Positions 8,459 to 50,789 of a stretch of 64,000 bases of DNA are shown here, piece by piece (within the stretch, counting starts at the first letter, position 1; each line of letters begins with the position of its first letter). Location: contig JAHCRG010000016.1 of the NCBI GenBank assembly GCA_020148045.1, positions 68-64,067 of the forward strand, given 5' to 3'. This DNA is from Patescibacteria group bacterium. Lineage in GTDB: Bacteria > Patescibacteriota > Minisyncoccia > Minisyncoccales > GWA2-38-27. The notes below the pieces were generated by a model that was given only the letters and a program-made list of their open reading frames with translations, had not been told where the DNA came from and did not search any database. The position numbers were made by a program, and so were the translations under genes.

Positions 8459-9862
8459 ATGATTTCTAAAAAAGATTTTATAAAAATTAATAATTGGTTA
8501 TGGGAGATCCCTAAATCTTTTAGACAAGATATGCGGGTTCCTGCAAGGATTTATACTTCGGAAAAGATGTTAGAAGATATTTTTCAAGATGACTCAATTC
8601 AGCAATTGATTAATGGAACTACTCTGCCTGGTATAGTGAGATATGGTATAGCTATGCCTGATTGCCACGAAGGTTATTCAGTGCCTATAGGTTTTGTGGG
8701 CGCAATCAAAATTCCAGACGGAGTTATTTCACCTGGAGCCTGCGGTTTCGACATTAATTGCGGAATGAGATTGTTGAAATCAGAACATGCTGAGAAAGAA
8801 ATTAAGCCGTATTTGGAAAACTTGGCAACTGAAATTCAAAAGCAAGTTCCTTCTGGATTAGGAAGAGGAAGGGGAATAAAATTGAGTATTGAACAAATTG
8901 ATAAGATTTTACGACAAGGAACTCATGTTTTACTGAAACAAGGATACGGCGAAAAAGAGGATGTTGAAAATTGCGAGGCATCTGGGAGATTAGATTGGGC
9001 AGATGCTTCTGTTGTTTCGGACCATGCTAAAAATAGAGGGAGAGATCAGGTTGGAACTCTTGGGAGTGGGAATCATTTTTTGGAGATTCAAAAAGTAGCT
9101 GAAATCTTTGATGAGAAAATAGCTGAAACTTTTGGATTGTTTAAAGACCAAGTTGTAATAATGATTCATACTGGTTCAAGAGGTCTTGGCCATCAGGTTT
9201 GCACAGATTATTTGAAAACAATGATTCCGGCTATGAGCAAGTATAATATAAAAGTTCCGGATAAAGAATTTGCCTGTGTTCCTTTTGATTCTTCTGAAGG
9301 ACAGAGATATTTTTCAGCCATGGCTTCAGCTGCTAATTATGCTTGGGCTAACCGCTATATGATTGCTCATTATGTAAGAAAGGCGTGGAAAGAGGTAATG
9401 GGGCAGAAAGAAAAACTTGAATTATTATATGATGTGGCTCACAACATTATTAAAAAAGAAAAATACAAAATTGATGGAAAAGATACTGAAGTCATTGTTC
9501 ATCGAAAAGGAGCGACAAGGGCTTTTCCTGGACAGCCAGTCCTGCTTCCCGGGAGTATGGGAACTTCTTCATATATTTTAATAGGGACAGAAAAAGGAGA
9601 AGAGGCATTTTTTTCAACCTCTCATGGGGCAGGCAGGAGAATGTCTAGACGGGAAGCAATGAGAACTATTTCGGGAAGAGAAGTGATAGATAAATTAAAG
9701 CAAAAAGGGATAATTATAAAATGTCGTTCAATGAGGGGAATTGCCGAAGAGGCGCCTCTGGCTTACAAAGATATAGATAATGTAGTAGAAGTTGTTCATA
9801 ATGCTGGTTTGTCAAAAAAGGTAGTCAAACTCGTTCCTTTAGCAGTGATAAAAGGAGAGTAG
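8459..9862 (+). CDS. rtcB: RNA-splicing ligase RtcB
   Basis: GSGNHFLE, HTGSRGLGHQV, SHGAGR motifs over the full length. Confidence 0.9.
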   Translation: MISKKDFIKINNWLWEIPKSFRQDMRVPARIYTSEKMLEDIFQDDSIQQLINGTTLPGIVRYGIAMPDCHEGYSVPIGFVGAIKIPDGVISPGACGFDINCGMRLLKSEHAEKEIKPYLENLATEIQKQVPSGLGRGRGIKLSIEQIDKILRQGTHVLLKQGYGEKEDVENCEASGRLDWADASVVSDHAKNRGRDQVGTLGSGNHFLEIQKVAEIFDEKIAETFGLFKDQVVIMIHTGSRGLGHQVCTDYLKTMIPAMSKYNIKVPDKEFACVPFDSSEGQRYFSAMASAANYAWANRYMIAHYVRKAWKEVMGQKEKLELLYDVAHNIIKKEKYKIDGKDTEVIVHRKGATRAFPGQPVLLPGSMGTSSYILIGTEKGEEAFFSTSHGAGRRMSRREAMRTISGREVIDKLKQKGIIIKCRSMRGIAEEAPLAYKDIDNVVEVVHNAGLSKKVVKLVPLAVIKGE

Positions 9863-19695: not shown

Positions 19696-19724
19696 TGGCT
19701 GAAAAGCCAGTTTTTTGATAGAAT
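19696..19724 (+). repeat. 29-nt GAAA-tetraloop hairpin plus TGnTAGAAT module, copy 2
   Basis: TGGCTGAAAAGCCAGTTTTTTG-A-TAGAAT, between divergent gene starts at 19664 and 19733. Confidence 0.8.
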
Positions 19725-19732
19725 TAAGGAAC

Positions 19733-20851
19733 ATGCCAAAAGTTGGTATCGCTACAATTCCACTTGATTATGGCCGGTGCCCGCGTTGGTTATTTGAAAG
19801 GATGAAGCGGCTTTCCCGAGGGATAATGTTGGCTATCCGGGAAGAGTTTGGGCCAGAAGAAATTTTGAAAAGATTATCTGACCCGGTTTGGTTTCAGAGC
19901 TTGGGGTGTGTAATTGGATTTGACTGGAATAGTTCCGGTTTAGCCACTACTACTTTAGGGGCTTTAAAAGTTGGGCTTTTTGATATTCAAGATGAATTAG
20001 GTATTTATGTTTGTGGAGGTAAGAAAGAATCAAGAAAAACACCCCAAGAAATTGAGGCCTATGGAATTTCTCGTGGCTTTCCATTTGCTCCAAATTTAAT
20101 TTATGCCTCAAAAATGGCAGCCAAAGTTGATAGCTCGGCTTTGCAGGATGGTTTTCAAATTTATGCCCACAATTTGATTTTTTCAAAATCAGGTCAGTGG
20201 ACAGTAATCCAGCAGGGAATGAATATTAATGTCCAAAAAGCTCGGCGTTATCATTGGTTGTCTTCCGGAATTAAAGATTTCGTTGAGGAGCCGCATTCAG
20301 GGATTATTTCTGATGCTCGGGGTAAGCCCTTAAATTTAACTGCTAAAGAGAGCAATAAAAATAGGGAGGTTTCAACCGGCTTGGTAGCAGAGGAGCCAAA
20401 AACATTTTTAAAAGATTTAGATTTAATTCAGACCAAAAGGTCAAAAAATCTTACCCTAATGGAACTTAGAGATATTGAGTTTTATTGGCATCCAGTTGTG
20501 CAGGAGAAATTTGATTTAAAGCGGCTTGAGAAAACTATTTTCTTCGCCAATGCTTTAAAGCCAAAAAACTTTGAACAACTCTTAGCCTTAAAAGGCATTG
20601 GTCCCAAAACAATTCGTGCTTTGAGTTTAGTTTCCGAATTAATCTACGGCGCCAGACCCTCTTACGAAGATCCTGCAAGGTATTCATTTTCAGTAGGCGG
20701 GAAAGACGGCACTCCTTTTTTCGTAGAAAGAGATGTTTATGATAAGGTATTGGATGTAATGGAAAAAGGCATTAAAAAAAGCAAAATCTCCTTACGCGAA
20801 AAAGTTGAAGCCCAAAAAAGATTGAATAGTTCATATATTCGTGGGGTATGA
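19733..20851 (+). CDS. DUF763 family protein
   Basis: IPLDYGRCPRWLFERM, DPVWFQSLGCVIGFDWNSSG. Start moved to ATG 19733 (the track used a TTG). Confidence 0.6.
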   Translation: MPKVGIATIPLDYGRCPRWLFERMKRLSRGIMLAIREEFGPEEILKRLSDPVWFQSLGCVIGFDWNSSGLATTTLGALKVGLFDIQDELGIYVCGGKKESRKTPQEIEAYGISRGFPFAPNLIYASKMAAKVDSSALQDGFQIYAHNLIFSKSGQWTVIQQGMNINVQKARRYHWLSSGIKDFVEEPHSGIISDARGKPLNLTAKESNKNREVSTGLVAEEPKTFLKDLDLIQTKRSKNLTLMELRDIEFYWHPVVQEKFDLKRLEKTIFFANALKPKNFEQLLALKGIGPKTIRALSLVSELIYGARPSYEDPARYSFSVGGKDGTPFFVERDVYDKVLDVMEKGIKKSKISLREKVEAQKRLNSSYIRGV

Positions 20852-21321
20852 AAAAATTGTCATTTTATGTTGTTTGTGATAATATACGGAGTTTAGAGAA
20901 TATTGGTTCTATTTTTAGAACTGCTGACGCTTTGAATGTTGATAAGATTTTTCTTTGCGGAATTTGCGGGAGACCACCTAGTCAGAAGATATCAAAAAGC
21001 GCGCTGGGCGCGGAAAAATGGATTGCTTGGGAGTATTGCGGCAAGACTTGGCGAGCAATAGAGAGGTTAAAAAAAGAGAATGTTTTTATTGTGGCTTTGG
21101 AGCAAGAAGAAAATAGTTTAGTTTATACTAAATTCAAGCCAAAATTCCCTTTAGCTTTAATAATAGGGAATGAAGTCAAAGGAGTTTCGCCCTCTGTTTT
21201 AAAAAGAGCAGATAAAATAATATCTTTACCAATGTTTGGCAGAAAAGAATCTCTGAACGTGGCAGTTGCTTTTGGCATAGCAGCTTACAGAATTCGCTGC
21301 CCCCATAGTTCAATTGGATAG
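20848..21321 (+). CDS. SpoU/TrmH-family RNA 2'-O-methyltransferase
   Basis: ENIGSIFRTA, IIGNEVKGVS, SLNVAVAFGI motifs. The last 23 nt of the ORF lie inside tRNA-Arg(CCG). Confidence 0.8.
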   Translation: MKKLSFYVVCDNIRSLENIGSIFRTADALNVDKIFLCGICGRPPSQKISKSALGAEKWIAWEYCGKTWRAIERLKKENVFIVALEQEENSLVYTKFKPKFPLALIIGNEVKGVSPSVLKRADKIISLPMFGRKESLNVAVAFGIAAYRIRCPHSSIG

Positions 21322-21371
21322 AACATCAGCTTCCGGAGCTGAAAATATAGGTTCGAGTCCTATTGAGGGCA
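21299..21371 (+). tRNA. tRNA-Arg(CCG)
   Basis: Cloverleaf folded by hand: acceptor GCCCCCA/TGAGGGC (one C-A mismatch), anticodon loop TTCCGGA, T-loop TTCGAGT. No CCA. Confidence 0.85.
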
Positions 21372-21381: not shown

Positions 21382-21467
21382 GGAGGGGTGCTCCGAATGG
21401 TAAGGAACCGCTCTCGAAAAGCGGCGCCCGCTCAGCGGGCTTGTGAGTTCGAATCTCACCCCCTCCG
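21382..21467 (+). tRNA. tRNA-Ser(CGA)
   Basis: Acceptor GGAGGGG/CCCCTCC, anticodon loop CTCGAAA, long variable arm, T-loop TTCGAAT. Confidence 0.85.
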
Positions 21468-21469
21468 CT

Positions 21470-21853
21470 ATGTTTAAATTTTTTCAAAAAGGCAAAGAGC
21501 CGAGGAGTTTGAAGGAGGCTTTGAAACAGTTTGAAGATTTGAAAAAAGAAGTTGAGAGAATTTCTCAAGGGCTTGAAAATTTGAAAGAAAAGGGTAAGCT
21601 TTCTATTCAGAAAGTAGGGATAGTTAGATATAATCCTTTTTCTGAAGTCGGAGGCGACCAGAGCTTTTCTGTTGCTTTGCTTGATGAGAACAATGACGGA
21701 GTAGTGGTTACCAGCTTATACTCCCGAGAAGGAAACAGGGTTTATGGGAAACCAGTGAAGAGTGGTATTTCTGAGTATTCCTTGTCTAATGAGGAGAAGA
21801 AGGCGATTGAGAAAGCCGTAAGCTCTAAAATCCCAAATCCTAATGGTCAATGA
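21470..21853 (+). CDS. DUF4446 family protein
   Basis: VRYNPFSEVGGDQSFSVALLD..GVVVTSLY motif. First ATG is 2 nt after the tRNA-Ser 3' end. Confidence 0.6.
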   Translation: MFKFFQKGKEPRSLKEALKQFEDLKKEVERISQGLENLKEKGKLSIQKVGIVRYNPFSEVGGDQSFSVALLDENNDGVVVTSLYSREGNRVYGKPVKSGISEYSLSNEEKKAIEKAVSSKIPNPNGQ

Positions 21854-21919: not shown

Positions 21920-23410
21920 ATGGTTGAAAAAAAACAACAAAACTTAATATCTCGTCCTCCAGTTGTAGTAGTTTTAGGTCATGTTGATCATGGCAAGAGC
22001 TCTATTTTGGAAAAAATTAAGGATTTGAAGATTACAGAGAAAGAATCAGGAGGGATTACCCAGCATATTGGAGCTTATGAGGTTGAACATCAAGGCAAGA
22101 AAATTACTTTTATTGATACTCCTGGTCATGAGGCGTTTTCAGCCATGCGTTCCAGAGGGGCAAAAGTAGCTGACATCGCGATTTTAGTAATAGCTGCTGA
22201 AGAAGGAATAAAGCCGCAAACTAAAGAAGCAATTTCTCATATTAAGAAAGCTGGAATTCCAATGATTGTGGCTATTAATAAAATGGATAAGCCAGGAGCT
22301 GATCCTGAAAAGGTTAAAAGAGAATTATCAGTCCAAGATATTTCAGTTGAATCAATGGGAGGCAAGATTCCTTCAGTAGAAATATCGGCAGAAACAGGCA
22401 AGGGAATTCCCGAGCTTTTAGAATTAATTTTGTTAGTGGCTGAAATGGAAGGTTTTAAAGCAGATGTTTCCAAACCAGCTGAAGGAGTGATAGTTGAATC
22501 ATATTTAGATTCTCAGCGAGGACCAACAGCTACTTTAATTTTGCAAAATGGAATCTTGAAAAGAGGCGATATATTAGGAACTTCTTCTGTTGTTGGCAAA
22601 ATTAGAATTATGGAAGATTTTCAGGGCTTATCTATTAAGCAGGCTTCTCCGTCAATGCCGGTTATTGTTTTAGGATTTGAAAATGTCCCTAGAGTTGGGG
22701 AGAGATTTAAAGTTTTTACTGATATTGAAACGGCTAAGAGAAGACTTGAAGGAATAGTTAAGCCGGGCCCTCAAGTGCTTGATATTGAGCCAGATAAGAA
22801 AGTTTTAAATTTGATTTTAAAAGTTGATGTTTTAGGGTCGCTTGAAGCAATTGAAGAGGTTTTGAAAAAGCTTCCTCAGGAGAAAGTTATTTTAAGAATT
22901 TTGAAGGGGGAAGTGGGGGAGATAAATGAGTCAGATGTGAAGTTAGCCGGAGGAGCTAAAGCTATAATAGTCGGTTTTAGAGTGAAAACAAATCCAATTG
23001 CCCAAAAATTAGCCTTGAGGGAAAAAATAAAGATAATGTGTTTTGAGGTAATCTATGAATTAGTTCAAGAAGTTAGAGGGGTTTTGGAAAAAAAGGTCAG
23101 ACCCGAAGTAGTGAGGATTGATTTGGGAAAAGTTAAAATTTTAGCAATTTTTCGAACAGAAAAAAATCGCCAGATTATTGGAGGAAAAGTAATTGAAGGT
23201 GAGGTGAAAAGAGGGGCTTCTCTGGAGGTTTTCCGAAATGAGGAAAAAGTTGGCAGAGGGAAAATTGTTAATCTTCAGCGAGATAAAAAAGAGGTTGAGG
23301 AATTAGCAAAGGGAGCAGAATGCGGAATACTTTATGAAGGAGACATTAAGATGGAAGAAGGGGACGTGCTGTGGGTATACACAGAGGAGAGAAGAAAAGG
23401 AGAATTATAA
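21920..23410 (+). CDS. infB: translation initiation factor IF-2 (short form lacking the N-terminal region)
   Basis: G-domain GHVDHGKSS, DTPGH, NKMD, followed by IF-2 domains II-IV. Confidence 0.9.
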   Translation: MVEKKQQNLISRPPVVVVLGHVDHGKSSILEKIKDLKITEKESGGITQHIGAYEVEHQGKKITFIDTPGHEAFSAMRSRGAKVADIAILVIAAEEGIKPQTKEAISHIKKAGIPMIVAINKMDKPGADPEKVKRELSVQDISVESMGGKIPSVEISAETGKGIPELLELILLVAEMEGFKADVSKPAEGVIVESYLDSQRGPTATLILQNGILKRGDILGTSSVVGKIRIMEDFQGLSIKQASPSMPVIVLGFENVPRVGERFKVFTDIETAKRRLEGIVKPGPQVLDIEPDKKVLNLILKVDVLGSLEAIEEVLKKLPQEKVILRILKGEVGEINESDVKLAGGAKAIIVGFRVKTNPIAQKLALREKIKIMCFEVIYELVQEVRGVLEKKVRPEVVRIDLGKVKILAIFRTEKNRQIIGGKVIEGEVKRGASLEVFRNEEKVGRGKIVNLQRDKKEVEELAKGAECGILYEGDIKMEEGDVLWVYTEERRKGEL

Positions 23411-23411
23411 T

Positions 23412-23759
23412 ATGAGTAATCGCATTCAACGCGTTAATGCGTTGATAAAAAATGAGTTAAGTCAGATTCTTTTAAAAGAGGTTGGTTTTCCAAAGGATAC
23501 TTTAGTAACTATTACCCGGGTGGAAAGTTCGGTGAATTTGAATCAGGCAAAAATATATATTTCAGTAATGTCTGAAGATAATATTGATGAAGTTTTCGAG
23601 ATTTTAAATAGAAGAATTTATGATATTCAGCAGACCCTAAACAGACGTTTAAAAATGAGACCAATTCCTAAAATAGAATTTAAAAAAGAAGAAAAAACTG
23701 AGGAAGCAGCAAGGGTTGAGGAGCTTTTGGAGGAGATAAAAAATGAAGAGAAGGGTTGA
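23412..23759 (+). CDS. rbfA: ribosome-binding factor A
   Basis: R.QRVN.LIKNELSQIL start. Start moved to ATG 23412. Confidence 0.85.
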   Translation: MSNRIQRVNALIKNELSQILLKEVGFPKDTLVTITRVESSVNLNQAKIYISVMSEDNIDEVFEILNRRIYDIQQTLNRRLKMRPIPKIEFKKEEKTEEAARVEELLEEIKNEEKG

Positions 23760-23775
23760 AAAAAGAGTAAGAAAA

Positions 23776-23784
23776 TGTTATAAT
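23776..23784 (+). promoter_or_regulatory. extended -10 element TGTTATAAT directly upstream of tRNA-Cys
   Basis: Only 8 nt separate the hexamer from tRNA nucleotide 1 (23793). Confidence 0.4.
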
Positions 23785-23792
23785 AAAATAGT

Positions 23793-23963: not shown

Positions 23964-23997
23964 TAAAAAAAGCCCCCGTCTTGGCGGGGGCTTTAAG
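23964..23997. terminator. bidirectional terminator between tRNA-Leu(UAA) and the 3D-domain gene
   Basis: AGCCCCCG/CGGGGGCT 8-bp stem flanked by an A-run and a T-run. Confidence 0.75.
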
Positions 23998-24007: not shown

Positions 24008-24517
24008 TTAGTTTTCTAAAATTTCGGCTTCAACTATTTTTACCCCAAAGCTTTTGGCTTCTTCATAAGAATCCATCCAGATATCAAAATGATAAGATCC
24101 TTTTTTCCAATTCATTCGGTCCTCGACTACAAAAACTTTATCTCCGTAAATCTCAGGAAATCTTATCTCGGTCCCAAAGGAGTACCTATTATTAGCTACA
24201 ATTCCTTGTTCAACTGTTTTTCCTGAAGCGGTTAGAAATGGAGTATTGTCTGTCTGCCAAGTAGTACTGGAATAAGCAGTGACTACCACTTTTACTTTCT
24301 TGACTTTAACAGGAGCTTCGGGATTAGATACTGCTAAGAGAGAATTTTCTTGGATTGTAGCCAGTTCTAAAGCAGAAGCCGGCTCATCGGCTTTTGCCTG
24401 CTGCATTTTTGTTATTCCTAATCCTAAACCACTGGCAAGAATTCCAGCCGTTATTAAAATAACTAAGATTTTTTTGGCTCCCAGATAAGGATCCTCTTTT
24501 TCAATATAAATATCCAT
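24008..24517 (-). CDS. 3D-domain (RlpA/MltA-like double-psi beta-barrel) secreted protein
   Basis: N-terminal TM/signal segment. VTAYSS...TASG...GIVA...FVVEDR....FDIW pattern. Confidence 0.7.
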   Translation of the reverse strand: MDIYIEKEDPYLGAKKILVILITAGILASGLGLGITKMQQAKADEPASALELATIQENSLLAVSNPEAPVKVKKVKVVVTAYSSTTWQTDNTPFLTASGKTVEQGIVANNRYSFGTEIRFPEIYGDKVFVVEDRMNWKKGSYHFDIWMDSYEEAKSFGVKIVEAEILEN

Positions 24518-24598: not shown

Positions 24599-24670
24599 AG
24601 CGGGTGAGCGGAATTGAACCGCCATCTCAACCTTGGCAAGGTTGCATAATAACCACTATACGACACCCGC
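24599..24670 (-). tRNA. tRNA-Gly(GCC)
   Basis: Acceptor GCGGGTG/CACCCGC, anticodon loop TTGCCAA, T-loop TTCAATT. Confidence 0.85.
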
Positions 24671-24732
24671 CTTCGTCAGCCGTAGCTGGCTTCGGCGGGC
24701 GAAGCCCGCAGAGACAGCGTAGCTGGACTTAG

Positions 24733-24806
24733 TGCCGCGAGTCAGACTTGCACTGACCACCCCAGCTTTTTCAGAGCTGTGCTCTAACTACCTGAGCTAT
24801 CGCGGC
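24733..24806 (-). tRNA. tRNA-Phe(GAA)
   Basis: Acceptor GCCGCGA/TCGCGGC, anticodon loop CTGAAAA. Unusual T-loop TGCAAGT and D-loop AGGTAGTTA. Confidence 0.85.
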
Positions 24807-24844
24807 CTAATTAAATTTTATTACATTTTTCCAAAAATTTCCAG

Positions 24845-24920
24845 TGGTGGGCGGTGAAGGATTCGGACCTACGACCTCCTCGGTGTAAACGAGGCACTCT
24901 AACCACTGAGCTAACCGCCC
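24845..24920 (-). tRNA. tRNA-Val(UAC), the only tRNA here with an encoded CCA
   Basis: Acceptor GGGCGGT/ACCGCCC, anticodon loop TTTACAC, T-loop TCCGAAT. 3' ACCA is encoded (24845-24848). Confidence 0.85.
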
Positions 24921-24923
24921 ATG

Positions 24924-25006
24924 TGCCCAGGGTGGGACTTGAACCCACACGCTCTTACGAGCCATGGCCCTCAACCATGTATGTATACCGATTCCATCAC
25001 CTGGGC
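24924..25006 (-). tRNA. tRNA-Leu(GAG)
   Basis: Acceptor GCCCAGG/CCTGGGC, anticodon loop TTGAGGG, long variable arm, T-loop TTCAAGT. Confidence 0.85.
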
Positions 25007-25428
25007 TCTTCTTTTTTCTCTTCCGTTGGTTTTTCTCTAACGATTTCTTCTTTTGGTTCTTCCTCAGCTATTGCTTCAGTAAATTCTTTCCTTTTTAGCC
25101 GGGCTTTTTTGCCTTTCGCTTTTCTTAAGTAATAAAGCTTTGCCCTCCTAACTTTTCCTCTTTTTAAAATTTCTATTTTTTCAATAGTCAGGGAGTGAAT
25201 AGGAAAAATTTTCTCTACTCCAATCCCAGAAATCACTTTTCTTACAGTTATTGTAGCAGAAATTCCTTTTCCATGCTTTTTGGCAAGAACTATACCCTCA
25301 AAGGCCTGAAGTCGCTCCTTATCTTTTTCTTTGACCTTTTGATAAACCCGAACAGTATCACCTGGACGGATGTCAGGCAGACCTTTTTTTAATTGGGTTT
25401 TGGTAAAAGTTTCAATTTTTGTAGGCAT
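24997..25428 (-). CDS. rplS: 50S ribosomal protein L19 with low-complexity C-terminal tail
   Basis: RPGDTVRV..KV.E....R.Q.FEG.V core. The reading frame only stops 10 nt inside tRNA-Leu(GAG). Confidence 0.9.
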   Translation of the reverse strand: MPTKIETFTKTQLKKGLPDIRPGDTVRVYQKVKEKDKERLQAFEGIVLAKKHGKGISATITVRKVISGIGVEKIFPIHSLTIEKIEILKRGKVRRAKLYYLRKAKGKKARLKRKEFTEAIAEEEPKEEIVREKPTEEKKEEPR

Positions 25429-26033
25429 AATTTTAAATCATCTGGCAATGCTGACTTAAATTCTTTTATTTCTCCATCTGGCAGCTTTATTTTAATGTAG
25501 CTGGCATGTAAAAATTGGCGTTTCAATCCTTCTGGGCAGGGCTGATTTTTAAAACCATACATTTTATCTCCAGCAATTGGATGGCCAAGATAAGAAAAAT
25601 GGCATCTGATTTGATGCTTTCTTCCTGTTTTGGGAGCAACTTCAACTAAAGTGTAATCTTTAAATCTTTCTATCACCTTATATTCACTAATTGCTTCTCT
25701 TTTTCCTTTGGAGCCAGGCTCAGCAGGAAGATAAACTTTTTGCTTTTTTCTGTCTTTCGGAGCTCTACCAATTAAGGCTTCAATCACCCCTTGATTATTT
25801 TTAAGATTTCCAACAACTAAAGTAATATATTTCTTTTTTACCTTTCTATTTTTAAATTGTTTTTGCAAAAAAATCAAGGCCTTATCATTTTTTGCGATTA
25901 GAAGAACTCCCGAAGTTTCTTTATCTAACCTATGAACTTTTTTCAAATCAGGATATAAATCACTCGTTACAATCCCTGCTGGTTTATCAATCACCAAGAC
26001 ATCATTATCCTCATAAATTATTTTCGTCTCCAT
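25389..26033 (-). CDS. RluA-family pseudouridine synthase
   Basis: VIDKPAG, HRLDKETSGVLL catalytic motif. ATG lies 1 nt after tRNA-Val(GAC). Confidence 0.85.
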   Translation of the reverse strand: METKIIYEDNDVLVIDKPAGIVTSDLYPDLKKVHRLDKETSGVLLIAKNDKALIFLQKQFKNRKVKKKYITLVVGNLKNNQGVIEALIGRAPKDRKKQKVYLPAEPGSKGKREAISEYKVIERFKDYTLVEVAPKTGRKHQIRCHFSYLGHPIAGDKMYGFKNQPCPEGLKRQFLHASYIKIKLPDGEIKEFKSALPDDLKLCLQKLKLLPKPN

Positions 26034-26034
26034 G

Positions 26035-26107
26035 TGGGCGCTGAGGGATTCGGACCCACGACCTTCTCGATGTCACCGAGACGCGCTAACCACTGCGCCA
26101 AGCGCCC
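26035..26107 (-). tRNA. tRNA-Val(GAC)
   Basis: Acceptor GGGCGCT/AGCGCCC, anticodon loop GTGACAT, T-loop TCCGAAT. Confidence 0.85.
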
Positions 26108-26114
26108 ATTATTG

Positions 26115-26186
26115 TGCGCACGGATGGATTCGAACCATCAACCTCGGCCTTATAAGGACCTTGCTCCGCCATTGAGCTACGTGCGC
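26115..26186 (-). tRNA. tRNA-Ile(UAU)
   Basis: Acceptor GCGCACG/CGTGCGC, anticodon stem AGGTC/GGCCG (one mismatch, one G-U), loop CTTATAA, T-loop TTCGAAT. Confidence 0.75.
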
Positions 26187-26193
26187 ATAATAA

Positions 26194-28098
26194 TTATCTT
26201 ACCTCTTTCATTTTGATTTTCAAGGAGGGGACAGGTTTTCTGCTTGGTTTTTTATTTTTTTGTGGGACGAAGGCGGGTGCCCTCTGTTTTACTAATCTCT
26301 CAAATTCTTCTTTTTCAATGGTTTCTTTGACAATTAAGGTCTGGGCAATTTTATTAAGTAATTTTTTTCTTTTAGTTAAAATTTTTGTTGCTTGTTTTTC
26401 TGCGTTTTTAACAAATTTTTCAACTTCTTTGTCAATTTGGGCAGCTACTTTTTCAGAATAATTTCTCTGTTCTGAAATTTCTTTTCCTAGAAAAACTAAT
26501 TCTTCCTTTTCTCCAAAGGAGATTGGTCCTAATTGAGACATCCCGTATTCTTTAACTAATTTTCTAGCTAAGTCAGAAGCTCTTTTTAAATCATTAGCTG
26601 CTCCAGTGGTAATTTCTCTAAATTTCAACTTTTCAGCGCAGTAACCACCAAGTAAAGTCGCTAGTTCAGCTAAAAATTCTTTTTTTGTTTTAATTTTCCT
26701 TTCCTCGGCTGGCATTTTTAAGGTGTAGCCAGCTGCCATACCTCTGGCAATAATTGAGATTTTCCTGACTGGTTCAGCTTCAGGCAGAGAGGCAGAAACT
26801 AAAGCATGGCCTGCTTCATGGAAAGCAGCAATTTCCTTTTCTTTTTTGGATAAAATATGGCTTTTTCTTTCAGGCCCTAATAAAACCTTTTCAATCGATT
26901 CTAAAAACTCTTTTTGATAAACTTGATTTTTATTTCTTCTGGCAGCTAAGATAGCTGCTTCATTAACAACATTAGCTATGTCAGCACCAGAAAATCCTGG
27001 AGTTCTTTCAGCAATTTCTCTTAAATTAACACTTGAAGCCAAGGGCTTGCCCTGACAGTGAATTTCCAAAATCTGTTTCCGGCCATTAACATCTGGCAGG
27101 TCCAAAACTACTTTTCGGTCAAACCTGCCAGGTCGCAAAAGAGCTGGATCCAAAATATCCGGGCGATTCGTCGCAGAGATAACTATGACCTGGGTTTCTC
27201 TTTCAAAACCGTCCATTTCTACTAAAATTTGATTTAAAGTTTGTTCCCTTTCATCATGTCCTCCACCAAGACCAGCTCCTCTGTGTCTGCCAATAGCATC
27301 AAGTTCATCAATAAAAATAATTGAAGGAGCTGCTTTTTTGGCGGTAGAAAAGAGATCACGTACTCTTCCTGCGCCCACTCCTACAAACATCTCTACGAAT
27401 TCTGAACCTGAAATATGAAAAAAAGGTACATTAGCCTGCCCTGCCACGGCACGGGCCAAAAGGGTTTTTCCTGTGCCGGCTGGGCCCATTAAGAGGACTC
27501 CTCTTGGAATCCTTGCCCCTATTTTTAAATATTTTTTAGGATTTTTTAGAAAATCAACAACCTCTTTCAATTCTTCTTTGGCCTCTTTTAAACCAGCCAC
27601 ATCCTTGAAAGTGATTTTTTCTTTAGGATGTCCTTCAGCGCCGAAAAGTCGAGCTCTGGCTTTGGTAAAACTAAATGCCTGGGTAGCTCCAGCTTTTGCC
27701 TGGCGGAAAATCATCCAGAAAAATAGACCAAAAAGCAAAAGAGGAAGTCCAAACATCAAGACAGGTCCTAACCAGAGCCAGGTTCCTTGCTCTTTTTTTG
27801 CCTCAATTTCTACTTTTTTTAATTTTTCTGAATCTATCCCCAGATTCATCAAAGACTCAGAAAGAGAACTTTCTGTTTCTTTTCTTGATTTTGCCGTTGT
27901 TTCATCTTGATATAAGATAGAAAGCTCTGAGCCAGAAACAGTAATTTTTTTAATTTTTTCCTGATTAATCTCCTCAACTAATTGTGTCAAAGAAATTTCT
28001 TTTTCCTTTTTAAAGGGCTGGGAAAATAAAGCAAAAACTGCTGAAATTATCAGAAAGATAAGCAGAATAAAAACAAAATTTTTAACCAGAGATTTCAT
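26194..28098 (-). CDS. ftsH: ATP-dependent zinc metalloprotease FtsH
   Basis: Two N-terminal TM helices, Walker [12 protein letters not shown] region, HEAGHA zinc site. Confidence 0.95.
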
Positions 28099-28274: not shown

Positions 28275-29369
28275 TCAGGGTAAAAGTTTCAGGGTCATTC
28301 GGTGTTCAGCCGGCTCAATTAATAAGATTTTAAAGTCGCATTTTTCTCCAATTTTCAGAGTTTCCTCCATTTTTTTCTGAGAACCAAATTCAGAAACATG
28401 GCACAATCCCTGAATTTGGGGAGAGATTTTAATAAAAGCGCCAAAGGGATTAAATTTTGTTACTTCCCCTTTTGCAATATCACCCTTTTTATATTTTTTT
28501 TCAATATTCTTCCAAGGGTCTTTTTTCAGGGCTTTTAGAGATAAGGAAACCTTACCATTTGAAATATCAATAATTTTTGCTTTAACTTTTTGGCCAACTT
28601 TAACTATTTCTGAAGGGTCTTCAATTAGTTGCCAATCTAATTCAGAGATGTGAATAAGGCCTTCTAAGTTTTCCGGAGTTTCCTCGGCGGGACCTCCTTT
28701 CGTTGCCGCTACGGAGGGCGAGAATTTTATAAATGCGCCGAAATTTACAACACCAGTAATTTCTCCTTCAACCGCATCTCCTATTTTGTAATTTTTTAAG
28801 ATTTCTTTTATTTTTTTGGTTTCTTTTGCCTTCTCAGATAAAATGAGTTTTTCTTCCTTTTGGTCAAAGTCAAATATTTTTACTTCCATCTCTTTTCCAA
28901 TAAATTTCTGAAGGGCTCTTAAAATTTTCTGAGTATCCCCTCCTTCTATTTTAGGATAATTAGCAAGAGAGAGCTGAGAGACCGGCAGAAAGGCAGGAAT
29001 TCCCGATACCTCTGTTAAGAGTCCTCCCTTGTTTGCTCCTGAAATTTTTACAACGATACTTTCATCTTCTCCCTTTTTCTCTGAGAGCTGCGCCCAGGCA
29101 AGTTCTTTCCCTGCTTTAGTTAAAGAAAGTTCAATGTAACCTTCTTCATTTTCAAGGTCAGTTATTTTTGTAAAGACACTATCCCCGATTTTTAAATCTT
29201 TCAATTTATCTTTTGCTTCGTAAAATTCTTTCCCATAAATTATTCCTGTTCCCAAAGTTCCCAAATCCAAAAACACCGAGGCCTTGCCTTTTCCTACAAT
29301 TTTTCCCTGAACAATCTCGCCAACCTTGGGTGGTTTTAATAAATCATTTTTTTCAATTATTTCTTTCAT
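28275..29369 (-). CDS. S1 RNA-binding domain repeat protein (ribosomal protein S1-like)
   Basis: Four repeats of the S1 pattern (G..V.G.V......GAF...). Confidence 0.8.
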   Translation of the reverse strand: MKEIIEKNDLLKPPKVGEIVQGKIVGKGKASVFLDLGTLGTGIIYGKEFYEAKDKLKDLKIGDSVFTKITDLENEEGYIELSLTKAGKELAWAQLSEKKGEDESIVVKISGANKGGLLTEVSGIPAFLPVSQLSLANYPKIEGGDTQKILRALQKFIGKEMEVKIFDFDQKEEKLILSEKAKETKKIKEILKNYKIGDAVEGEITGVVNFGAFIKFSPSVAATKGGPAEETPENLEGLIHISELDWQLIEDPSEIVKVGQKVKAKIIDISNGKVSLSLKALKKDPWKNIEKKYKKGDIAKGEVTKFNPFGAFIKISPQIQGLCHVSEFGSQKKMEETLKIGEKCDFKILLIEPAEHRMTLKLLP

Positions 29370-29499
29370 ATCAATATATATAACATAGAATTTGTATTAT
29401 GGCAACATTTATTTAACGTTTAAATCGACGATTTAAACACTTGAAGGATTGAAACTAAGTTTTATTTATGATAAAATAAAAAAATATAGTAATATAATT

Positions 29500-30156
29500 A
29501 TGAACATTACTTGGTACGGACAATCTTGTTTTCAAATTTCCTCAGCGCAGGGGAAAAACAATCACGTCTCAATTATAATTGACCCCTTTGGAGGGGATAT
29601 TGGCTTAAAGCTTCCCAGAAAGCTTGAAGCTGATGTTGTGTTGGTCAGCCACGACCATTTTGACCATAACAATATTAAGGCAGTTTCTGGTCAGCCCTTG
29701 GTTATAAAAGGACCTGGTGAATATGAAATAAAAGGAGTCTTTGTTCAAGGGATTTCTGGTTTTCATGATAACTCTCAAGGAGCAAAAAGAGGAAATGTAA
29801 CAATTTATACTATTGAGACAGAGGGAATGCGAATGTGCCATTTAGGGGACCTGGGTCAAAAAGAATTAAGTTCTGACCAACTTGATAAAATTGGTGAAGT
29901 TGACATACTAATGATTCCGGTTGGAGGAATTTATACAATTGACGCTGGCGAGGCAATAAAAGTAATGGCTCAGATTGAACCCAAAATTACAATACCAATG
30001 CATTATCAAATTCCCAAACTTAAAATCAAGCTTGAAGGAATAGGTAAATTTTTAAAAGCTCTGGGGATAAAATCCTTAGAGCCATTACCTAAGTTATCTA
30101 TTAGGAAAAAAGACATTTCTTCTGAGGAAGCAAAAATAATTGTGTTGAAACCGTAA
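29500..30156 (+). CDS. MBL-fold metal-dependent hydrolase (UPF0173-like)
   Basis: ITWYGQSCF, VLVSHDHFDH. Start moved to ATG 29500. Confidence 0.8.
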   Translation: MNITWYGQSCFQISSAQGKNNHVSIIIDPFGGDIGLKLPRKLEADVVLVSHDHFDHNNIKAVSGQPLVIKGPGEYEIKGVFVQGISGFHDNSQGAKRGNVTIYTIETEGMRMCHLGDLGQKELSSDQLDKIGEVDILMIPVGGIYTIDAGEAIKVMAQIEPKITIPMHYQIPKLKIKLEGIGKFLKALGIKSLEPLPKLSIRKKDISSEEAKIIVLKP

Positions 30157-33427: not shown

Positions 33428-33781
33428 ATGAAACCCTATCTATCCAAATTAATATTTTTCTTGCTGTTAATTTCTTTTCTTATTCCCTTAACAGTTCAAG
33501 GAGTTACAATTGAGAATCCTTTAAAAGCTCAAAGTTTCTGGGATTTGATAGATAAACTTATTGATTTTATATTTTACCTTGCCATAGCCATAGCTCCGAT
33601 AATGTTTATTGTTGCTGGATTTTACTTTATAACAGCAGCCGGCGACCCAGAAAAAATCCAGACAGCTAAAAAAATGATTCTCTGGGTTCTAATTGGATTA
33701 CTTATTGTTTTTTTAGCTAAAGCATTGATTGTATTTTTTGTAGAAATGTTTGGTATACCAATACCGCCAACAACACCTTAA
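33428..33781 (+). CDS. TrbC/VirB2-like small pilin-type membrane protein
   Basis: Signal peptide plus two TM helices joined by AAGDPEK...AKK. Paralogous to the next gene. Confidence 0.45.
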   Translation: MKPYLSKLIFFLLLISFLIPLTVQGVTIENPLKAQSFWDLIDKLIDFIFYLAIAIAPIMFIVAGFYFITAAGDPEKIQTAKKMILWVLIGLLIVFLAKALIVFFVEMFGIPIPPTTP

Positions 33782-33840
33782 AATTATAACCGTTATAAAT
33801 TATAAAGGTCGACCTCAAACTTAATAACTTTGACAAAAAA

Positions 33841-34176
33841 ATGAAAAAAGTTTTAGTAAGCTTGATTTTAACAAGTCTTCTATCTATTCCAGTATTGGCA
33901 TTAGCACAGGCACAACCAGGTCCTATTACTGCGCCCGGCTGGTTAACTTACGATGTCGTAGATACGCTCGACAGTGTCACTAATTACCTTTTTGGATTTT
34001 TATTAGTTATAGCTGCTATCGCCATTATAATTGCTGCTTACTTTTTTGTTACAGCAGCCGGAGATCCCGATAAGACAAAAAGAGCAAGAGATTTTGTTAT
34101 GTATGCTGTGATTGGAGTGTTAGTAGCTTTCCTTGCCAAAGGATTAGTGATGCTTGTAAGTTATGTAGCAAGGTAA
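33841..34176 (+). CDS. TrbC/VirB2-like small pilin-type membrane protein
   Basis: Signal peptide, two TM helices, AAGDPDKTKRARD loop. Confidence 0.45.
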   Translation: MKKVLVSLILTSLLSIPVLALAQAQPGPITAPGWLTYDVVDTLDSVTNYLFGFLLVIAAIAIIIAAYFFVTAAGDPDKTKRARDFVMYAVIGVLVAFLAKGLVMLVSYVAR

Positions 34177-34290: not shown

Positions 34291-34315
34291 ATATAAAAAA
34301 GGTATAATAAAAAAA

Positions 34316-41686: not shown

Positions 41687-43810
41687 TTATTCTAAGTGGA
41701 TGCGTTGGCGGAATCTTGATAATTTATCCTGCAGAAAAGGATATTTTTTTAATTGGGGGTCTTCTAATAGAATTTGTTTTGCTGATTCTCTGGTTTTTTC
41801 AACCAAAGATATATCTTTTAGAGAATTCATCATCAAATCAGGAATTCCCCATTGTCTGGTGCCGCTAAAGTCACCAGGCCCTCTGATTTCCAAGTCCTTT
41901 TCAGCTAAAGCAAATCCATCTTCAGAAGTAATTAAAGCTTTTAGGCGCTGGTGAGTTTTTTTGGCAGGCGAGTCAGTAAATAACAAACAATATGATTGAT
42001 AACCTGCTCTACCAACTCTTCCTCTAAACTGATGAAGTTGAGCTAAGCCAAAACGTTCTGCTCCCTCAATCATCATTACCGTAGCGTTAGGGACATCAAT
42101 TCCTACTTCAATTACTGAAGTTGAAACCAAGATATCAGTTTTTTTGTTTTTGAAATCCTTCATTATATTTTCTTTTTCTTTGGTTGCCATTTTTCCATGA
42201 AGCATTTCTACTTTTAAATCGGGGAAGATTTCTTTTGAAAGTTTTTCATATTCTTCTTTTACTGCTTTTACTTCTGACCAACCTAAAACGTCTGTTTCAT
42301 TTGCTTCCTTATTACCAGCCTCGATGCGAGGACAAATTACAAAAACCTGTCTTCCTTTTTTAACTTCTTTTTCGATAAACTCATGGGTTTTTTCTCTTTC
42401 TTTTGGGTTAATTACCTTGGTAATTATTTTTTTTCTGCCTTTTGGTAATTCATTAATTAAAGAAAGGTCCAGGTCGCCATAAACAGTTAAAGCAAGAGTA
42501 CGGGGGATAGGAGTGGCAGTCATAGATAGAAGATGAGGCAAAATTTTAGCCTGTCCGTTCTGCTTGCAGAGGCGGGCTCGCTGCTCTACTCCAAAACGGT
42601 GCTGCTCGTCCAAAATAACCAGTCCCAATTTCCCGAATTTTACCTTGTCTTGGATTAAAGCGTGAGTGCCAATTAAAATATCCAGTTCGCCATTTATTGT
42701 TTTTTCTAATAATTTTTTTCGGGAAATCTCTATTACCTCGTTTTTTAATTTTTTTGAACGAAACTGGTCTTGTTTCCCGGTTAATAAACCAATATTTACT
42801 TTAAAATCTTTAAGGAGCTTAGCTACTTCCTGGAAGTGTTGCTTAGCTAAAATTTCAGTGGGAGCCATAAAAGCAGCTTGATATCCTTGCTTAATAGTAT
42901 TTAAAGCAGCCATTGCAGCAACAACAGTTTTTCCAGAACCAACGTCTCCTTCAAGAAGACGGTTCATTGGTATTGGCCTTTCCAAATCCTTTAAAATCTG
43001 CCAGGCAGATTTTTTCTGCGCGTCAGTTAGTTTAAATGACAATGACTTAACAAAATCCTGAATTGTTTCTAATTTAATTGGAAGAGAAACTGATTTTTCC
43101 TGATTAAGACGGTTTCTTTCTCTTAAAACAAAGAGCTGGATATAGAAAAGTTCTTCAAAAGAAAATCTCTCTTGGGCTTTTTGCGATAATTTTACAGAGC
43201 TCGGGAAATGAACCTCCCAAAGAGCTTTCTTAACTGGCATAAGATTATATTCTTTTATTATTTCTTTAGGCAGGGTTTCATTGATTTGATTTTCAAGATT
43301 GGTTAATAAAGGTTTTAGAATAAACCTGAGCCATCTTGAAGACAAGCCAGCTGTTTCCGGATAAACCGGAATGAGCCGGCCAGTATGAGTTAAATCAGAT
43401 GACAAATCTCCTTTTTCATAAATAGGGCTTGATAAATACACGCCGTTTTTTGATATTATTGCTTTTCCTGAAAGAAAAACATTATCTTCTTTTTTTAAAA
43501 CTCTGGTTAAATAGGGCTGGTTAAACCAGGTTACTTTTATTGCTCCGGTTTTGTCTTCTATAATTGCCTGGGTTAGAAACATTTTTCTCTTCCAGGTTTT
43601 GGCGGTTTTAATTTCCAGAATTTTTCCATAAACTGTACAAATTTCATTTATTTTTACTTTTGAAATAGGAATTAAATTAGAAAAATCCTCGTAGCGGCGA
43701 GGAAAATGAAAAAGCAAATCCTGAACTGTTTTAATGCCTAATTTCTTTAATTTCTTCTGAAAAACAGGCCCAATCCCAGAAATATTTTCAATAGGAGTAG
43801 AGAGAGTCAT
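41687..43810 (-). CDS. recG: ATP-dependent DNA helicase RecG
   Basis: Wedge domain, GDVGSGKT, DEQHRFG, TATPIPRT, QLHQFRGRVGR. Confidence 0.95.
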   Translation of the reverse strand: MTLSTPIENISGIGPVFQKKLKKLGIKTVQDLLFHFPRRYEDFSNLIPISKVKINEICTVYGKILEIKTAKTWKRKMFLTQAIIEDKTGAIKVTWFNQPYLTRVLKKEDNVFLSGKAIISKNGVYLSSPIYEKGDLSSDLTHTGRLIPVYPETAGLSSRWLRFILKPLLTNLENQINETLPKEIIKEYNLMPVKKALWEVHFPSSVKLSQKAQERFSFEELFYIQLFVLRERNRLNQEKSVSLPIKLETIQDFVKSLSFKLTDAQKKSAWQILKDLERPIPMNRLLEGDVGSGKTVVAAMAALNTIKQGYQAAFMAPTEILAKQHFQEVAKLLKDFKVNIGLLTGKQDQFRSKKLKNEVIEISRKKLLEKTINGELDILIGTHALIQDKVKFGKLGLVILDEQHRFGVEQRARLCKQNGQAKILPHLLSMTATPIPRTLALTVYGDLDLSLINELPKGRKKIITKVINPKEREKTHEFIEKEVKKGRQVFVICPRIEAGNKEANETDVLGWSEVKAVKEEYEKLSKEIFPDLKVEMLHGKMATKEKENIMKDFKNKKTDILVSTSVIEVGIDVPNATVMMIEGAERFGLAQLHQFRGRVGRAGYQSYCLLFTDSPAKKTHQRLKALITSEDGFALAEKDLEIRGPGDFSGTRQWGIPDLMMNSLKDISLVEKTRESAKQILLEDPQLKKYPFLQDKLSRFRQRIHLE

Positions 43811-43812: not shown

Positions 43813-43885
43813 TGCGCCTAGTAGGAATCGAACCTACGACCTCGAAGTCCGCAACTTCGCGCTCTATCCACTGAGCTACAGGCGC
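43813..43885 (-). tRNA. tRNA-Arg(GCG)
   Basis: Acceptor GCGCCTG/TAGGCGC, anticodon stem CGAAG/CTTCG, loop TTGCGGA, T-loop TTCGATT. Confidence 0.8.
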
Positions 43886-43946
43886 ATTTACTTTTTTAAT
43901 TTATCATAAAATTTCCCAAAAATCAATTGACGCCGACAGATTTATT

Positions 43947-43955
43947 TGATAAAAT
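43947..43955 (+). promoter_or_regulatory. extended -10 element TGATAAAAT upstream of tRNA-Ser(GCU)
   Basis: 8 nt separate the hexamer from tRNA nucleotide 1 (43964). Confidence 0.4.
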
Positions 43956-43963
43956 AAAGATAC

Positions 43964-47109: not shown

Positions 47110-47113
47110 GAAC

Positions 47114-47638
47114 ATGGCTATAAAAATTGCTCCCAGAGGAAAAATTAAACTACCTCTTTGGATAATTATTCTTGGAGTTTTTACTATAATTTTGCTTATA
47201 GGTTTTTTGGGCAGCTATTTTTATTTAGAAATATCCATAAGAAAAATGTCTCAGGAGATTCAAGAAAAAGAGCCGATACTTACTCCTTTGGAAGAAGCCA
47301 TAAAGAAGAAAGAGGAAGAACTTAGTCCTGTTGGGGAAAAAATAGATGATTTTGGTGAATTGCTCCAAAAACATAAAATCCCATCAAATATTTTTAATTT
47401 TTTAGAAAAAATCTGCCTTCCTACTGTTTGGTTTTCTGATTTCAGTCTCACTTCTGAAAATGGAGAGGTAACCGTTTCCGGCCACACAGATAATTTTGTG
47501 ACCCTTGAGCAACAAATCCTCGTTTTAAAACAAGACCTCCTCGTAAAAAATTTAAATATATCTGGGGTTTCAATAAGCGAGGAAGGAAAAGTTAATTTCA
47601 CCTTCCTACTTGCTTTTGCCCCCCAAATATTTAGATAA
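47114..47638 (+). CDS. PilN-like bitopic pilus assembly protein
   Basis: One N-terminal TM helix, coiled coil, ferredoxin-like C-terminus. Position after pilM. Confidence 0.5.
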   Translation: MAIKIAPRGKIKLPLWIIILGVFTIILLIGFLGSYFYLEISIRKMSQEIQEKEPILTPLEEAIKKKEEELSPVGEKIDDFGELLQKHKIPSNIFNFLEKICLPTVWFSDFSLTSENGEVTVSGHTDNFVTLEQQILVLKQDLLVKNLNISGVSISEEGKVNFTFLLAFAPQIFR

Positions 47639-48237: not shown

Positions 48238-48249
48238 AAATAAAAAACT

Positions 48250-48522: not shown

Positions 48523-48610
48523 AACTTGAAACTTGAAACTTGAAACATTATTGATTGATAAGAATGTTTTCAAAATAAAATAAGTTTTAAGTTTTAAGTT
48601 TTAAGTTTCA
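48520..48610 (+). repeat. 27-bp hairpin of heptamer words (GAAACTT)n / (GTTTTAA)n spanning from stop codon to start codon
   Basis: 48520-48546 pairs base-for-base with 48584-48610: 24 Watson-Crick pairs plus 3 G-U pairs. 37-nt loop. Confidence 0.85.
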
Positions 48611-50331: not shown

Positions 50332-50337
50332 TGATCA

Positions 50338-50406: not shown

Positions 50407-50417
50407 AAATCAAATTT

Positions 50418-50783: not shown

Positions 50784-50789
50784 ATTTCT

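Follow-up and report, generated by a model that had tools for sequence, protein, structure and literature searches.

The closest described counterpart of the arrangement reported here is the tRNA punctuation of animal mitochondrial DNA, in which the tRNAs between the protein genes are released by RNase P and RNase Z (ELAC2). We have analyzed a stretch of 64,000 nucleotides (nt) from a Patescibacteria group bacterium (GenBank assembly GCA_020148045.1, contig JAHCRG010000016.1, positions 68 to 64,067; 'the window' throughout), in which open reading frames (ORFs) abut or run into tRNA genes. An initial annotation had called these junctions mitochondrion-like. The likeness holds in so far as tRNAs flank ORFs without spacer: both systems have spacers of 0-2 nt, start codons at the 3' border of a tRNA, no Shine-Dalgarno (SD) sequence and some ORFs without an intact stop codon outside the tRNA, and in both tRNA excision would create mRNA ends, here as a prediction. 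As a description of the whole system the term is overstated. Punctuation throughout the genome with few promoters is not what we met, since the window is from a bacterium with 15 tRNAs per about 60 genes, only a minority of genes is tRNA-flanked, and promoter-like sites are numerous, several of them in the region in question. Also unlike mitochondria, the window has a conserved single spacer base (C74, the base past the discriminator) and stop codons borrowed from U8-A9-G10 within the tRNA, where mitochondria complete theirs by polyadenylation; we know of no polyadenylation here that could do so.

Other known systems share single elements with this locus. In Escherichia coli, tRNA-mRNA co-transcripts such as thrU-tyrU-glyT-thrT-tufB and secG-leuU are split by RNase P, RNase E or RNase Z-type cleavage. 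The window would likewise hold tRNAs and protein genes in one transcription unit, but spacers in operons of the tufB type measure tens to hundreds of nt and include an SD leader, compared to 1-2 nt here, and to our knowledge no classical tRNA-mRNA operon has an AUG 1-2 nt from a discriminator or a stop codon inside a tRNA. In Nanoarchaeum equitans, tRNA transcription is leaderless, with promoters positioned such that the transcript begins at the mature tRNA 5' end or right beside it. Similarly, a -10 box here ends 8 nt before tRNA +1; unlike in Nanoarchaeum, a leader of 1-2 nt seems to remain, and many tRNAs are cluster-internal, so that RNase P would still be needed. The primary leaderless mRNAs of Actinobacteria, Deinococcus and archaea have the AUG at or near the 5' end, no SD sequence and a -10 box about 6-7 nt before the ATG (PMC4007540, PMC3898074), and the last two features recur here. 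While their 5'-triphosphate end is made by initiation, the tRNA-abutting genes of the window would obtain a 5'-monophosphate end by processing. Leaderless messages made by an endonuclease that cuts just 5' of the AUG, as we would predict here, have been described for MazF in E. coli (Vesper et al. 2011, as cited in PMC4681348); MazF is a stress-induced toxin of ACA specificity whose role is contested, whereas the cut proposed here would be part of constitutive tRNA maturation.

A full-text search returned, within the literature it covered, no description of tRNA-abutting leaderless genes in the candidate phyla radiation (CPR) or in other bacteria. Judged from sequence, the junctions appear to represent a new bacterial variant of tRNA punctuation with a well-motivated mechanism, in a Nealsonbacteria-like (Minisyncoccales) lineage of Patescibacteria; the DNA has a G+C content of about 35%, and the closest named relatives of its RecG are Candidatus Nealsonbacteria and Minisyncoccales. 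We lean toward the view that the punctuation is partial, that tRNAs and protein genes would be co-transcribed, that cleavage at the tRNA 3' end would free near-leaderless mRNAs for ribosomes adapted to leaderless messages, and that ORFs overlapping a tRNA would be translated before RNase P cuts.

The junctions involve the following genes.

26194-28098, minus strand: ftsH; stop codon TAA at 26196-26194; a promoter-like TTGAAA-16-TAAGAT (26223 to 26196) in its last codons ends 9 nt before the tRNA +1
26115-26186, minus strand: tRNA-Ile(UAU); ARAGORN, Rfam 64.4 bits
26035-26107, minus strand: tRNA-Val(GAC); ARAGORN, Rfam 61.2 bits
25389-26033, minus strand: rluA, RluA-family pseudouridine synthase without S4 domain; its ATG abuts tRNA-Val
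24997-25428, minus strand: rplS (L19), 143 residues; Pfam domain to residue 113, followed by a K/E-rich tail
24924-25006, minus strand: tRNA-Leu(GAG); ARAGORN, Rfam 50.7 bits
24845-24920, minus strand: tRNA-Val(UAC), 3 nt after tRNA-Leu; the only tRNA of the window that encodes CCA (24847-24845)
24733-24806, minus strand: tRNA-Phe(GAA); a promoter-like TGGAAA-17-TAAAAT (24843 to 24815) ends 8 nt before +1
24599-24670, minus strand: tRNA-Gly(GCC); ARAGORN, Rfam
24008-24517, minus strand: gene of 169 amino acids (aa), a contrast case with a normal spacer after tRNA-Gly and its own promoter-like TTGACA-16-TAATAT (24574 to 24547)
20848-21321, plus strand: ORF of a SpoU-family RNA 2'-O-methyltransferase, 157 residues; Pfam domain to residue 147
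21299-21371, plus strand: tRNA-Arg(CCG); ARAGORN, Rfam
21382-21467, plus strand: tRNA-Ser(CGA); ARAGORN, Rfam
21470-21853, plus strand: DUF4446 gene; ATG 2 nt (CT) past the tRNA-Ser discriminator
43813-43885, minus strand: tRNA-Arg(GCG); Rfam 69 bits; a -10-like TGATAAATT ends 12 nt upstream of its 5' end
41687-43810, minus strand: recG; ATG 2 nt (CA) past the tRNA-Arg discriminator

The tRNA borders were determined with ARAGORN and Rfam (49-69 bits), which gave equal results once the extra 3' C of ARAGORN had been trimmed by acceptor-stem pairing; ORFs were taken from the ORF list, and the junctions were also read directly in the sequence. All 15 tRNA genes identified by ARAGORN in the window were confirmed by Rfam, and every coordinate of the initial annotation turned out to be correct by these means. 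On the minus strand, the ftsH stop codon is followed by a spacer of 7 nt (26193-26187) and then by +1 of tRNA-Ile(UAU) at 26186. A single base, C26034, separates the discriminator of tRNA-Val(GAC), A26035, from the rluA start codon at 26033-26031. The rplS stop codon TGA (24999-24997) coincides with positions 8-10 of tRNA-Leu(GAG), whose +1 is at 25006, and the first 10 nt of this tRNA thus double as the final codons and stop of rplS. On the plus strand, the final 23 nt of the SpoU-family ORF lie within tRNA-Arg(CCG), and the 3' end of tRNA-Ser(CGA) at 21467 is separated by 'CT' from the DUF4446 ATG at 21470; on the minus strand, 'CA' lies between the 3' end of tRNA-Arg(GCG) at 43813 and the recG ATG at 43810. 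At the tRNA 3' border the spacers are therefore 1, 2 and 2 nt long, and at the 5' border they are +7, -10 and -23 nt. Of the six junctions in the window that lead from a tRNA to a downstream gene, these three measure 1-2 nt and the other three 76-132 nt; the 81 nt between tRNA-Gly(GCC) and the gene starting at 24517 hold that gene's own promoter-like site. An independent Logan assembly (L165) is base-for-base the same as window positions 24777-27016, and together with the many independent metagenomes described below this led us to reject an assembly artefact. The rplS start also sits 40 nt inside the rluA 3' end (25389-25428), an overlap that is kept in the closest relatives (locus L082, 10624-10663).

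The three abutting start codons are backed by the N-termini of orthologues. Alignment of 37 RluA orthologues (70-86% identity) placed the N-terminal M-x-x-K-(I/V)-IYED in the same column, 15 of 15 DUF4446 orthologues begin with MFxFFKK, and more than 110 RecG orthologues begin with M(N/T/D)LSTPIE, with solved RecG structures aligning from query residue 2. All abutting starts in relatives are ATG. Public gene calls deviate from this pattern in a telling way: two RluA entries (P0026, P0055) carry an N-terminal extension that is the translated T-arm and acceptor stem of the tRNA, and four RecG entries (P0123, P0125, P0147, P0184) read through the abutting tRNA. Wrong start codons were rejected on the basis of these conserved N-termini. 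Nothing in the sequence spoke against the geometry proposed initially, as the alignments gave no downstream starts with normal leaders and the arrangement is conserved across many lineages. The junctions are thus not due to chance, misassembly or wrong start codons.

This conservation was determined on 80 orthologous loci obtained from a metagenome scan with the rluA-specific C-terminus and on four more from exact-protein look-ups. A profile search of genome contigs with the RluA alignment gave, among the matches listed, only distant RluD-like genes (at most 45% identity) of other phyla; these contigs (1.18 Mb with just 43 tRNAs) served as a weak non-CPR control that is underpowered for tRNA junctions. 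tRNA-Val(GAC) precedes rluA in 49 non-redundant loci, with a scored spacer of 0-2 nt in 28, 3-10 nt in 3 and 11-120 nt in 15. The '0' spacers reflect a one-base shift by ARAGORN, the true state being 1 nt (T74). The spacer histogram accordingly shows a sharp spike at exactly 1 nt: the spacer is a single C or T in about 32 lineages and 2 nt in one, across an RluA identity of 68-91%. The position of the rplS stop codon relative to tRNA-Leu(GAG) in these loci varies between -23 and +29 nt or more; mostly the stop is 0-9 nt before the tRNA, and in four lineages it is 10 nt inside it. As this neighboring distance varies so widely, the rluA spacer is unusually constant.

Other genes show the same arrangement, at times in only part of their relatives. 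Synteny of tRNA-Ser(CGA) and DUF4446 is found in more than 15 loci, five lineages having spacers of 1-3 nt and the others spacers of 18-329 nt. Synteny of tRNA-Arg(GCG) and recG is also conserved. Their spacer measures 2 nt in the window, compared to 7 nt in L169 and to 147 or 268 nt in other loci; in some recG relatives two opposite-strand genes have been inserted between them. In relatives, further genes are met at short distance from a tRNA: a 139-aa ORF with a Nudix-like N-terminus follows tRNA-Val(UAC) after 1 nt, a gene for a 540-aa protein follows tRNA-Glu after 1 nt, an acetyltransferase-like and a DUF523-like gene follow tRNA-Leu(GAG) after 3 and 7 nt, respectively, and a gpsA-like gene follows tRNA-Ala after 4 and 8 nt. 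Where the spacer between tRNA-Val(GAC) and rluA is long, its contents suggest that short insertions or duplications occurred at tRNA 3' ends. They comprise a second copy of the tRNA 3' half, adjoining the ATG or close to it (L158, L162), a perfect palindrome of about 70 nt (L143, L163) and a recurring CACTTCGAC repeat (L094, L145, L151).

For the opposite side of the tRNA, 181 non-redundant junctions between an ORF of at least 90 codons and a following tRNA were collected. The gap is 0-7 nt in 76 of these, including 16 gaps of zero, and the ORF overlaps the tRNA in 24. In 14 of the 24 overlaps the length is exactly 10 nt. These cases span six tRNA species and several proteins (L19, SpoU and FtsH among them), and their share of 58% compares to about 18% expected under a random frame. 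The recurrence of this length is explained by the tRNA itself, because U8-A9-G10, i.e., the invariant U8 and two purines, reads as a stop codon in 53% of the tRNAs: positions 8-10 are TAG in 181 and TGA in 13 of 365 distinct tRNAs. The C-terminal residues encoded by the tRNA fall outside the Pfam domains of L19 and SpoU. Use of TGA as a sense codon was considered and rejected, as relatives end rplS with a TGA outside the tRNA. The initial annotation had further offered, as one of two alternatives, a mutually exclusive maturation of mRNA and tRNA. This applies in part, namely to ORFs with a stop codon inside the tRNA, since RNase P cleavage would remove the stop. Such a codon is present only on the uncut precursor, so translation would compete with RNase P cleavage, and a message that has been cleaved would lack a stop codon. 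A ribosome terminating inside the tRNA would also block formation of the acceptor stem.

How may the downstream genes be expressed? The initial annotation had pointed out that none of the three abutting genes has room for an SD sequence. Indeed, GGAG, GAGG and AGGA are absent from the 12-20 nt before the three abutting ATGs, which consist of tRNA acceptor and T-arm sequence, but this is not diagnostic, as about 88% of the ORF starts in the clade lack such a motif as well. An SD-like 4-mer within 20 nt of the start precedes only about 6 of 54 window genes, and an SD-like motif occurs at 12% of clade ORF starts compared to 30% in the non-CPR control, a noisy comparison. The 3' end of 16S rRNA, which holds the anti-SD sequence, was found in none of the loci examined. 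In place of SD motifs, an extended -10 box, TGNTANNNT, ends 5-9 nt before gene-start ATGs with a peak at 6-7 nt, where it is enriched 4-6-fold. This spacing accounts for 10 of 20 motif-ATG pairs in the window and for 45 of 104 in 497 kb of relatives. Expressed per 1000 ORF starts, the rate of such pairs is 98.7, compared to 41.7 for a distance of 12-20 nt as internal control and 16.8 in non-CPR loci; in seven loci of other CPR classes it is 125. Extended -10 boxes precede at least nine window genes, among them those that start at 7273, 33428, 37855 (minus strand), 45903 (minus strand), 46015, 58023 and 60517, each 6-9 nt before the ATG. A gap of six bases puts the transcription start on the A of the ATG and is thus the signature of primary leaderless mRNAs. 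This strong signature suggests that the clade would use leaderless expression routinely.

A related signal was found at the tRNA genes. Among 407 tRNA flanks, the -10 hexamer TANNNT ends exactly 8 nt before tRNA +1 in 39, compared to about 9 at neighboring positions; for the extended form, the number is 17 of about 40. Boxes before tRNAs of the window lie at 23756-23792 (tRNA-Cys), 24815-24843 (tRNA-Phe), 43940-43963 (tRNA-Ser GCU) and 34296-34315 (tRNA-Leu UAG). Given this distance, primary tRNA transcripts would carry a leader of 1-2 nt. At the 3' side, position 74 is C in 348 of 402 tRNAs (87%; L081-L164), in 15 of 15 window tRNAs and in 20 of 20 tRNAs of the seven loci from other CPR classes. 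CCA is encoded in 21% of tRNAs, while positions 74-75 are CA in 47%, CC in 26% and CT in 12%. The conservation of C74 suggests that RNase P or an unusual 3' pathway constrains this position. RNase P RNA contacts CCA via its L15 loop, and C74 may serve this recognition or a non-canonical 3' pathway. In the junction A73-C-AUG the spacer base is C74 and the A of the start codon is position 75, and one base is thus the smallest spacer that the constraint on the tRNA allows.

The three abutting genes do not have the -10 signal of the clade. TANNNT is absent 5-9 nt before their ATGs, no promoter-like hexamer occurs in the tRNA 3' halves, and according to our promoter scan neither such a hexamer nor a terminator fits between tRNA and ATG at the abutting junctions. 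As the G+C-rich acceptor-stem sequence offers no suitable -10 hexamer, the three genes are probably transcribed through the tRNA. All four tRNAs folded with 60 nt of flanking mRNA are predicted to keep the cloverleaf as their minimum-free-energy structure, with the AUG 1-2 nt from a stable helix, and no alternative pairing between tRNAs and mRNA flanks was found in these foldings. With respect to the path of the mRNA on the 30S subunit, a helix at this distance from the AUG makes a poor site for internal initiation. RNase Z, where it has been studied, cuts directly 3' of the discriminator and leaves a trailer with a 5' phosphate (PMC7479834), which here would give the 5' ends (C/U)AUG, CUAUG and CAAUG. 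A cut after C74 would give an exact 5'-AUG. The proposal in the initial annotation that tRNA 3' processing creates leaderless mRNAs hence gains strong indirect support from the sequence, namely from the absence of promoter hexamers in the tRNA 3' halves, the position of the AUG at the foot of the acceptor stem and the leaderless signature of the clade.

From these data we infer co-transcription, the nucleases with their exact cut site, the translation of 5'-monophosphate near-leaderless mRNAs and the fate of non-stop messages as follows. tRNA genes would reside within transcription units of protein genes, with spacers squeezed to the minimum that the tRNA tolerates, that is one base (normally C74) on its 3' side and zero or a short overlap on its 5' side. 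Two cuts would release the tRNA from the precursor, one by RNase P at tRNA +1 and one at or just past the discriminator by a 3' endonuclease, for which RNase Z is the obvious candidate. The downstream fragment would start with one of the ends given above, carry a 5'-monophosphate and be translated by ribosomes used to leaderless messages without SD sequence. Upstream ORFs would end 0-9 nt before the tRNA or, having lost their own stop codon, would be read on to the UAG or UGA at U8-A9-G10. The latter would terminate normally only on the uncut precursor, and after the RNase P cut ribosome rescue would be needed.

Two alternatives do without a processed, near-leaderless 5' end. In one, the downstream genes would be translated on the uncut precursor from an internal SD-less start, tRNA and mRNA maturation being mutually exclusive; the tRNA would shield the message from 5'-exonuclease and would itself mature only once 3'-to-5' exonucleases had degraded the mRNA up to its border. 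ORFs with a stop codon inside the tRNA must be read on uncut RNA anyway, and SD-independent internal starts are evidently common, operon-internal genes lacking SD motifs too. The retention of C74, although a cytidine at this position is reported to inhibit RNase Z, leaves room for an exonucleolytic 3' pathway, and CPR bacteria have been reported to retain RNase J, RNase III and PNPase (PMC12641178). Still, we consider this account unlikely, as it leaves the sharp preference for exactly 1 nt unexplained and places the AUG 1-2 nt from a stable, autonomously folding acceptor stem of 7 base pairs (bp). In the mRNA channel of the 30S subunit, the roughly 12 nt 5' of the P-site codon must be single-stranded or absent. 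In addition, each tRNA is probably the sole gene for its anticodon, which would make it costly to tie its maturation to decay of the full mRNA. The other account, in which tRNA processing is irrelevant and promoters hidden inside the tRNA genes start primary leaderless transcripts at the ATG, is, in our estimate, very improbable. Promoters from which transcription begins at the ATG are clearly in use in the clade, and coding sequence at other places does contain promoter-like sites (e.g., at the ftsH 3' end and across the rbfA stop codon). However, the 12 nt before the three ATGs are G+C-rich acceptor stem (ctcagcgcccac, accccctccgct and ctaggcgcaca) without TANNNT at 5-9 nt, the T-loop TCGAAT is 14-15 nt away and thus beyond the observed range, and the sole scan match near the rluA junction (26032-26004) lies downstream of the ATG, within rluA.

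A third account assigns the junctions no selected role. They would have arisen neutrally through deletion bias as the genome shrank and would be tolerated, with inefficient expression of the affected genes, and the pattern would mostly stem from the shared ancestry of a single junction. The whole genome is compact, with about 17 same-strand gene-gene junctions in the window that overlap or have spacers of at most 11 nt; most of the 1-nt spike comes from a single orthologous junction, rluA; and the abutment has been lost in many relatives without obvious replacement signals. Against this stand the exactly 1 nt kept at rluA in about 32 lineages next to spacers that vary from -23 to +29 nt or more, the origin of abutment in at least five unrelated gene families, and the enrichment of the shortest possible overlap (14 of 24 at -10, compared to the 18% of a random frame). 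We therefore judge pure neutrality to be improbable, and, as it concerns origin and not mechanism, it is largely compatible with processing-dependent punctuation.

Several observations nevertheless weigh against processing-dependent punctuation. Gene-gene junctions are just as tight, and many short spacers would already follow from compaction alone; part of the pattern would be expected from deletion bias in a compact genome anyway. The abutment is not obligatory, given the spacers of 11-120 nt at rluA (15 loci), of 18-329 nt at DUF4446 and of up to 268 nt at recG in relatives; since it has been lost in many of them, it is tolerated or favored, but not essential. Support comes from recG, whose relatives without abutting tRNA have a hexamer resembling a -10 box 6-12 nt upstream of the ATG and in no case an SD motif, but long spacers at rluA and DUF4446 only sometimes hold a well-placed -10 box. 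A general rule that a long spacer carries a -10 box 6-8 nt before the ATG is for this reason not claimed. The promoter assignments, moreover, are predictions from motifs. Cytidines just past the discriminator are reported to suppress RNase Z (PMC7479834), which makes a C74 in 87% of the tRNAs awkward for this enzyme, and the 3' pathway may differ from the textbook one. Neither in the window nor in related loci totalling about 0.7 Mb did motif scans detect RNase Z, RNase P protein, a CCA-adding enzyme or SmpB; transfer-messenger RNA (tmRNA) was not found by ARAGORN in the window and the related loci, and neither tmRNA nor RNase P RNA by Rfam in the window. ArfB and RNases J, Y, III and R were likewise not found by motif scans of the 0.7 Mb of related loci. 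The only match of these scans was a UPF0173-type metal hydrolase of the metallo-beta-lactamase fold (Pfam Lactamase_B_3, HxHxDH; 29449-30156, plus strand, in the window), which is located next to the S1 gene and is kept in about 20 related loci. As a candidate for RNase Z it was rejected, being too short and scoring too low.

A wider reading would extend the mechanism to the whole clade and make tRNA maturation an obligatory step of mRNA biogenesis: a 3' cleavage constrained by C74 would produce 5'-monophosphate leaderless mRNAs, and U8-A9-G10 would double as the upstream stop codon, so that termination, tRNA folding and RNase P would compete. We put this forward tentatively, as possible but rather doubtful. 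If true, it would be the first free-standing counterpart of mitochondrial tRNA punctuation among bacteria and a natural system whose ribosomes would as a rule initiate without leader on processed 5' ends. The proposed mechanism would show that a solution deemed an organelle peculiarity, tRNA punctuation with leaderless messages, has also evolved in bacteria with small genomes. The junctions would provide a natural test bed for bacterial ribosomes that start on 5'-monophosphate messages with leaders of 0-2 nt, and they bear on the competition of translation and tRNA processing over shared nucleotides. They also matter for CPR annotation, in which public callers already read through abutting tRNAs or miscall starts (P0026, P0055, P0123, P0147). 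The near-universal C74 without CCA, the -10 spacing at tRNAs and ATGs, and the scarcity of SD motifs are testable leads on transcription and RNA processing in a huge uncultured branch of bacteria.

Some further features of the window were noted. Two tRNAs have unusual anticodons: tRNA-Ile(UAU) (26115-26186), kept in 57 related loci, would read AUA without lysidine, and tRNA-Arg(GCG) (43813-43885) is found where bacteria usually have an ACG (inosine) tRNA. At 23969-23994, a perfect bidirectional intrinsic terminator separates the convergent tRNA-Leu(UAA) unit from the minus-strand gene at 24008-24517. It is the only strong terminator-like minus-strand hairpin in the region of 20.5-29.6 kb, where other minus-strand matches are weak stems of 5-7 bp. 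With regard to SD-independent or leaderless initiation, two genes are relevant, IF2 (21920-23410), which is short (496 aa) and lacks the N-terminal domains, and S1 (28275-29369), with four S1 domains in 364 aa. At 8459-9862 (plus strand) lies a gene of the RtcB family of RNA ligases, enzymes that connect 3'-phosphate to 5'-OH ends. Two starts are probably miscalled. For DUF763 (19715-20851) the ATG at 19733 is most likely, with TGATAGAAT 8 nt upstream, and for rbfA (23334-23759) the ATG at 23412, 1 nt past the infB stop codon; Pfam RBFA corresponds to residues 4-106 of the shorter form. Two small genes at 33428-34176 resemble pilins of type IV secretion systems (TrbC/VirB2), and the genes at 46015-61950, judged by their N-termini, seem to form a long cluster for a type IV pilus, several of them encoding prepilins.

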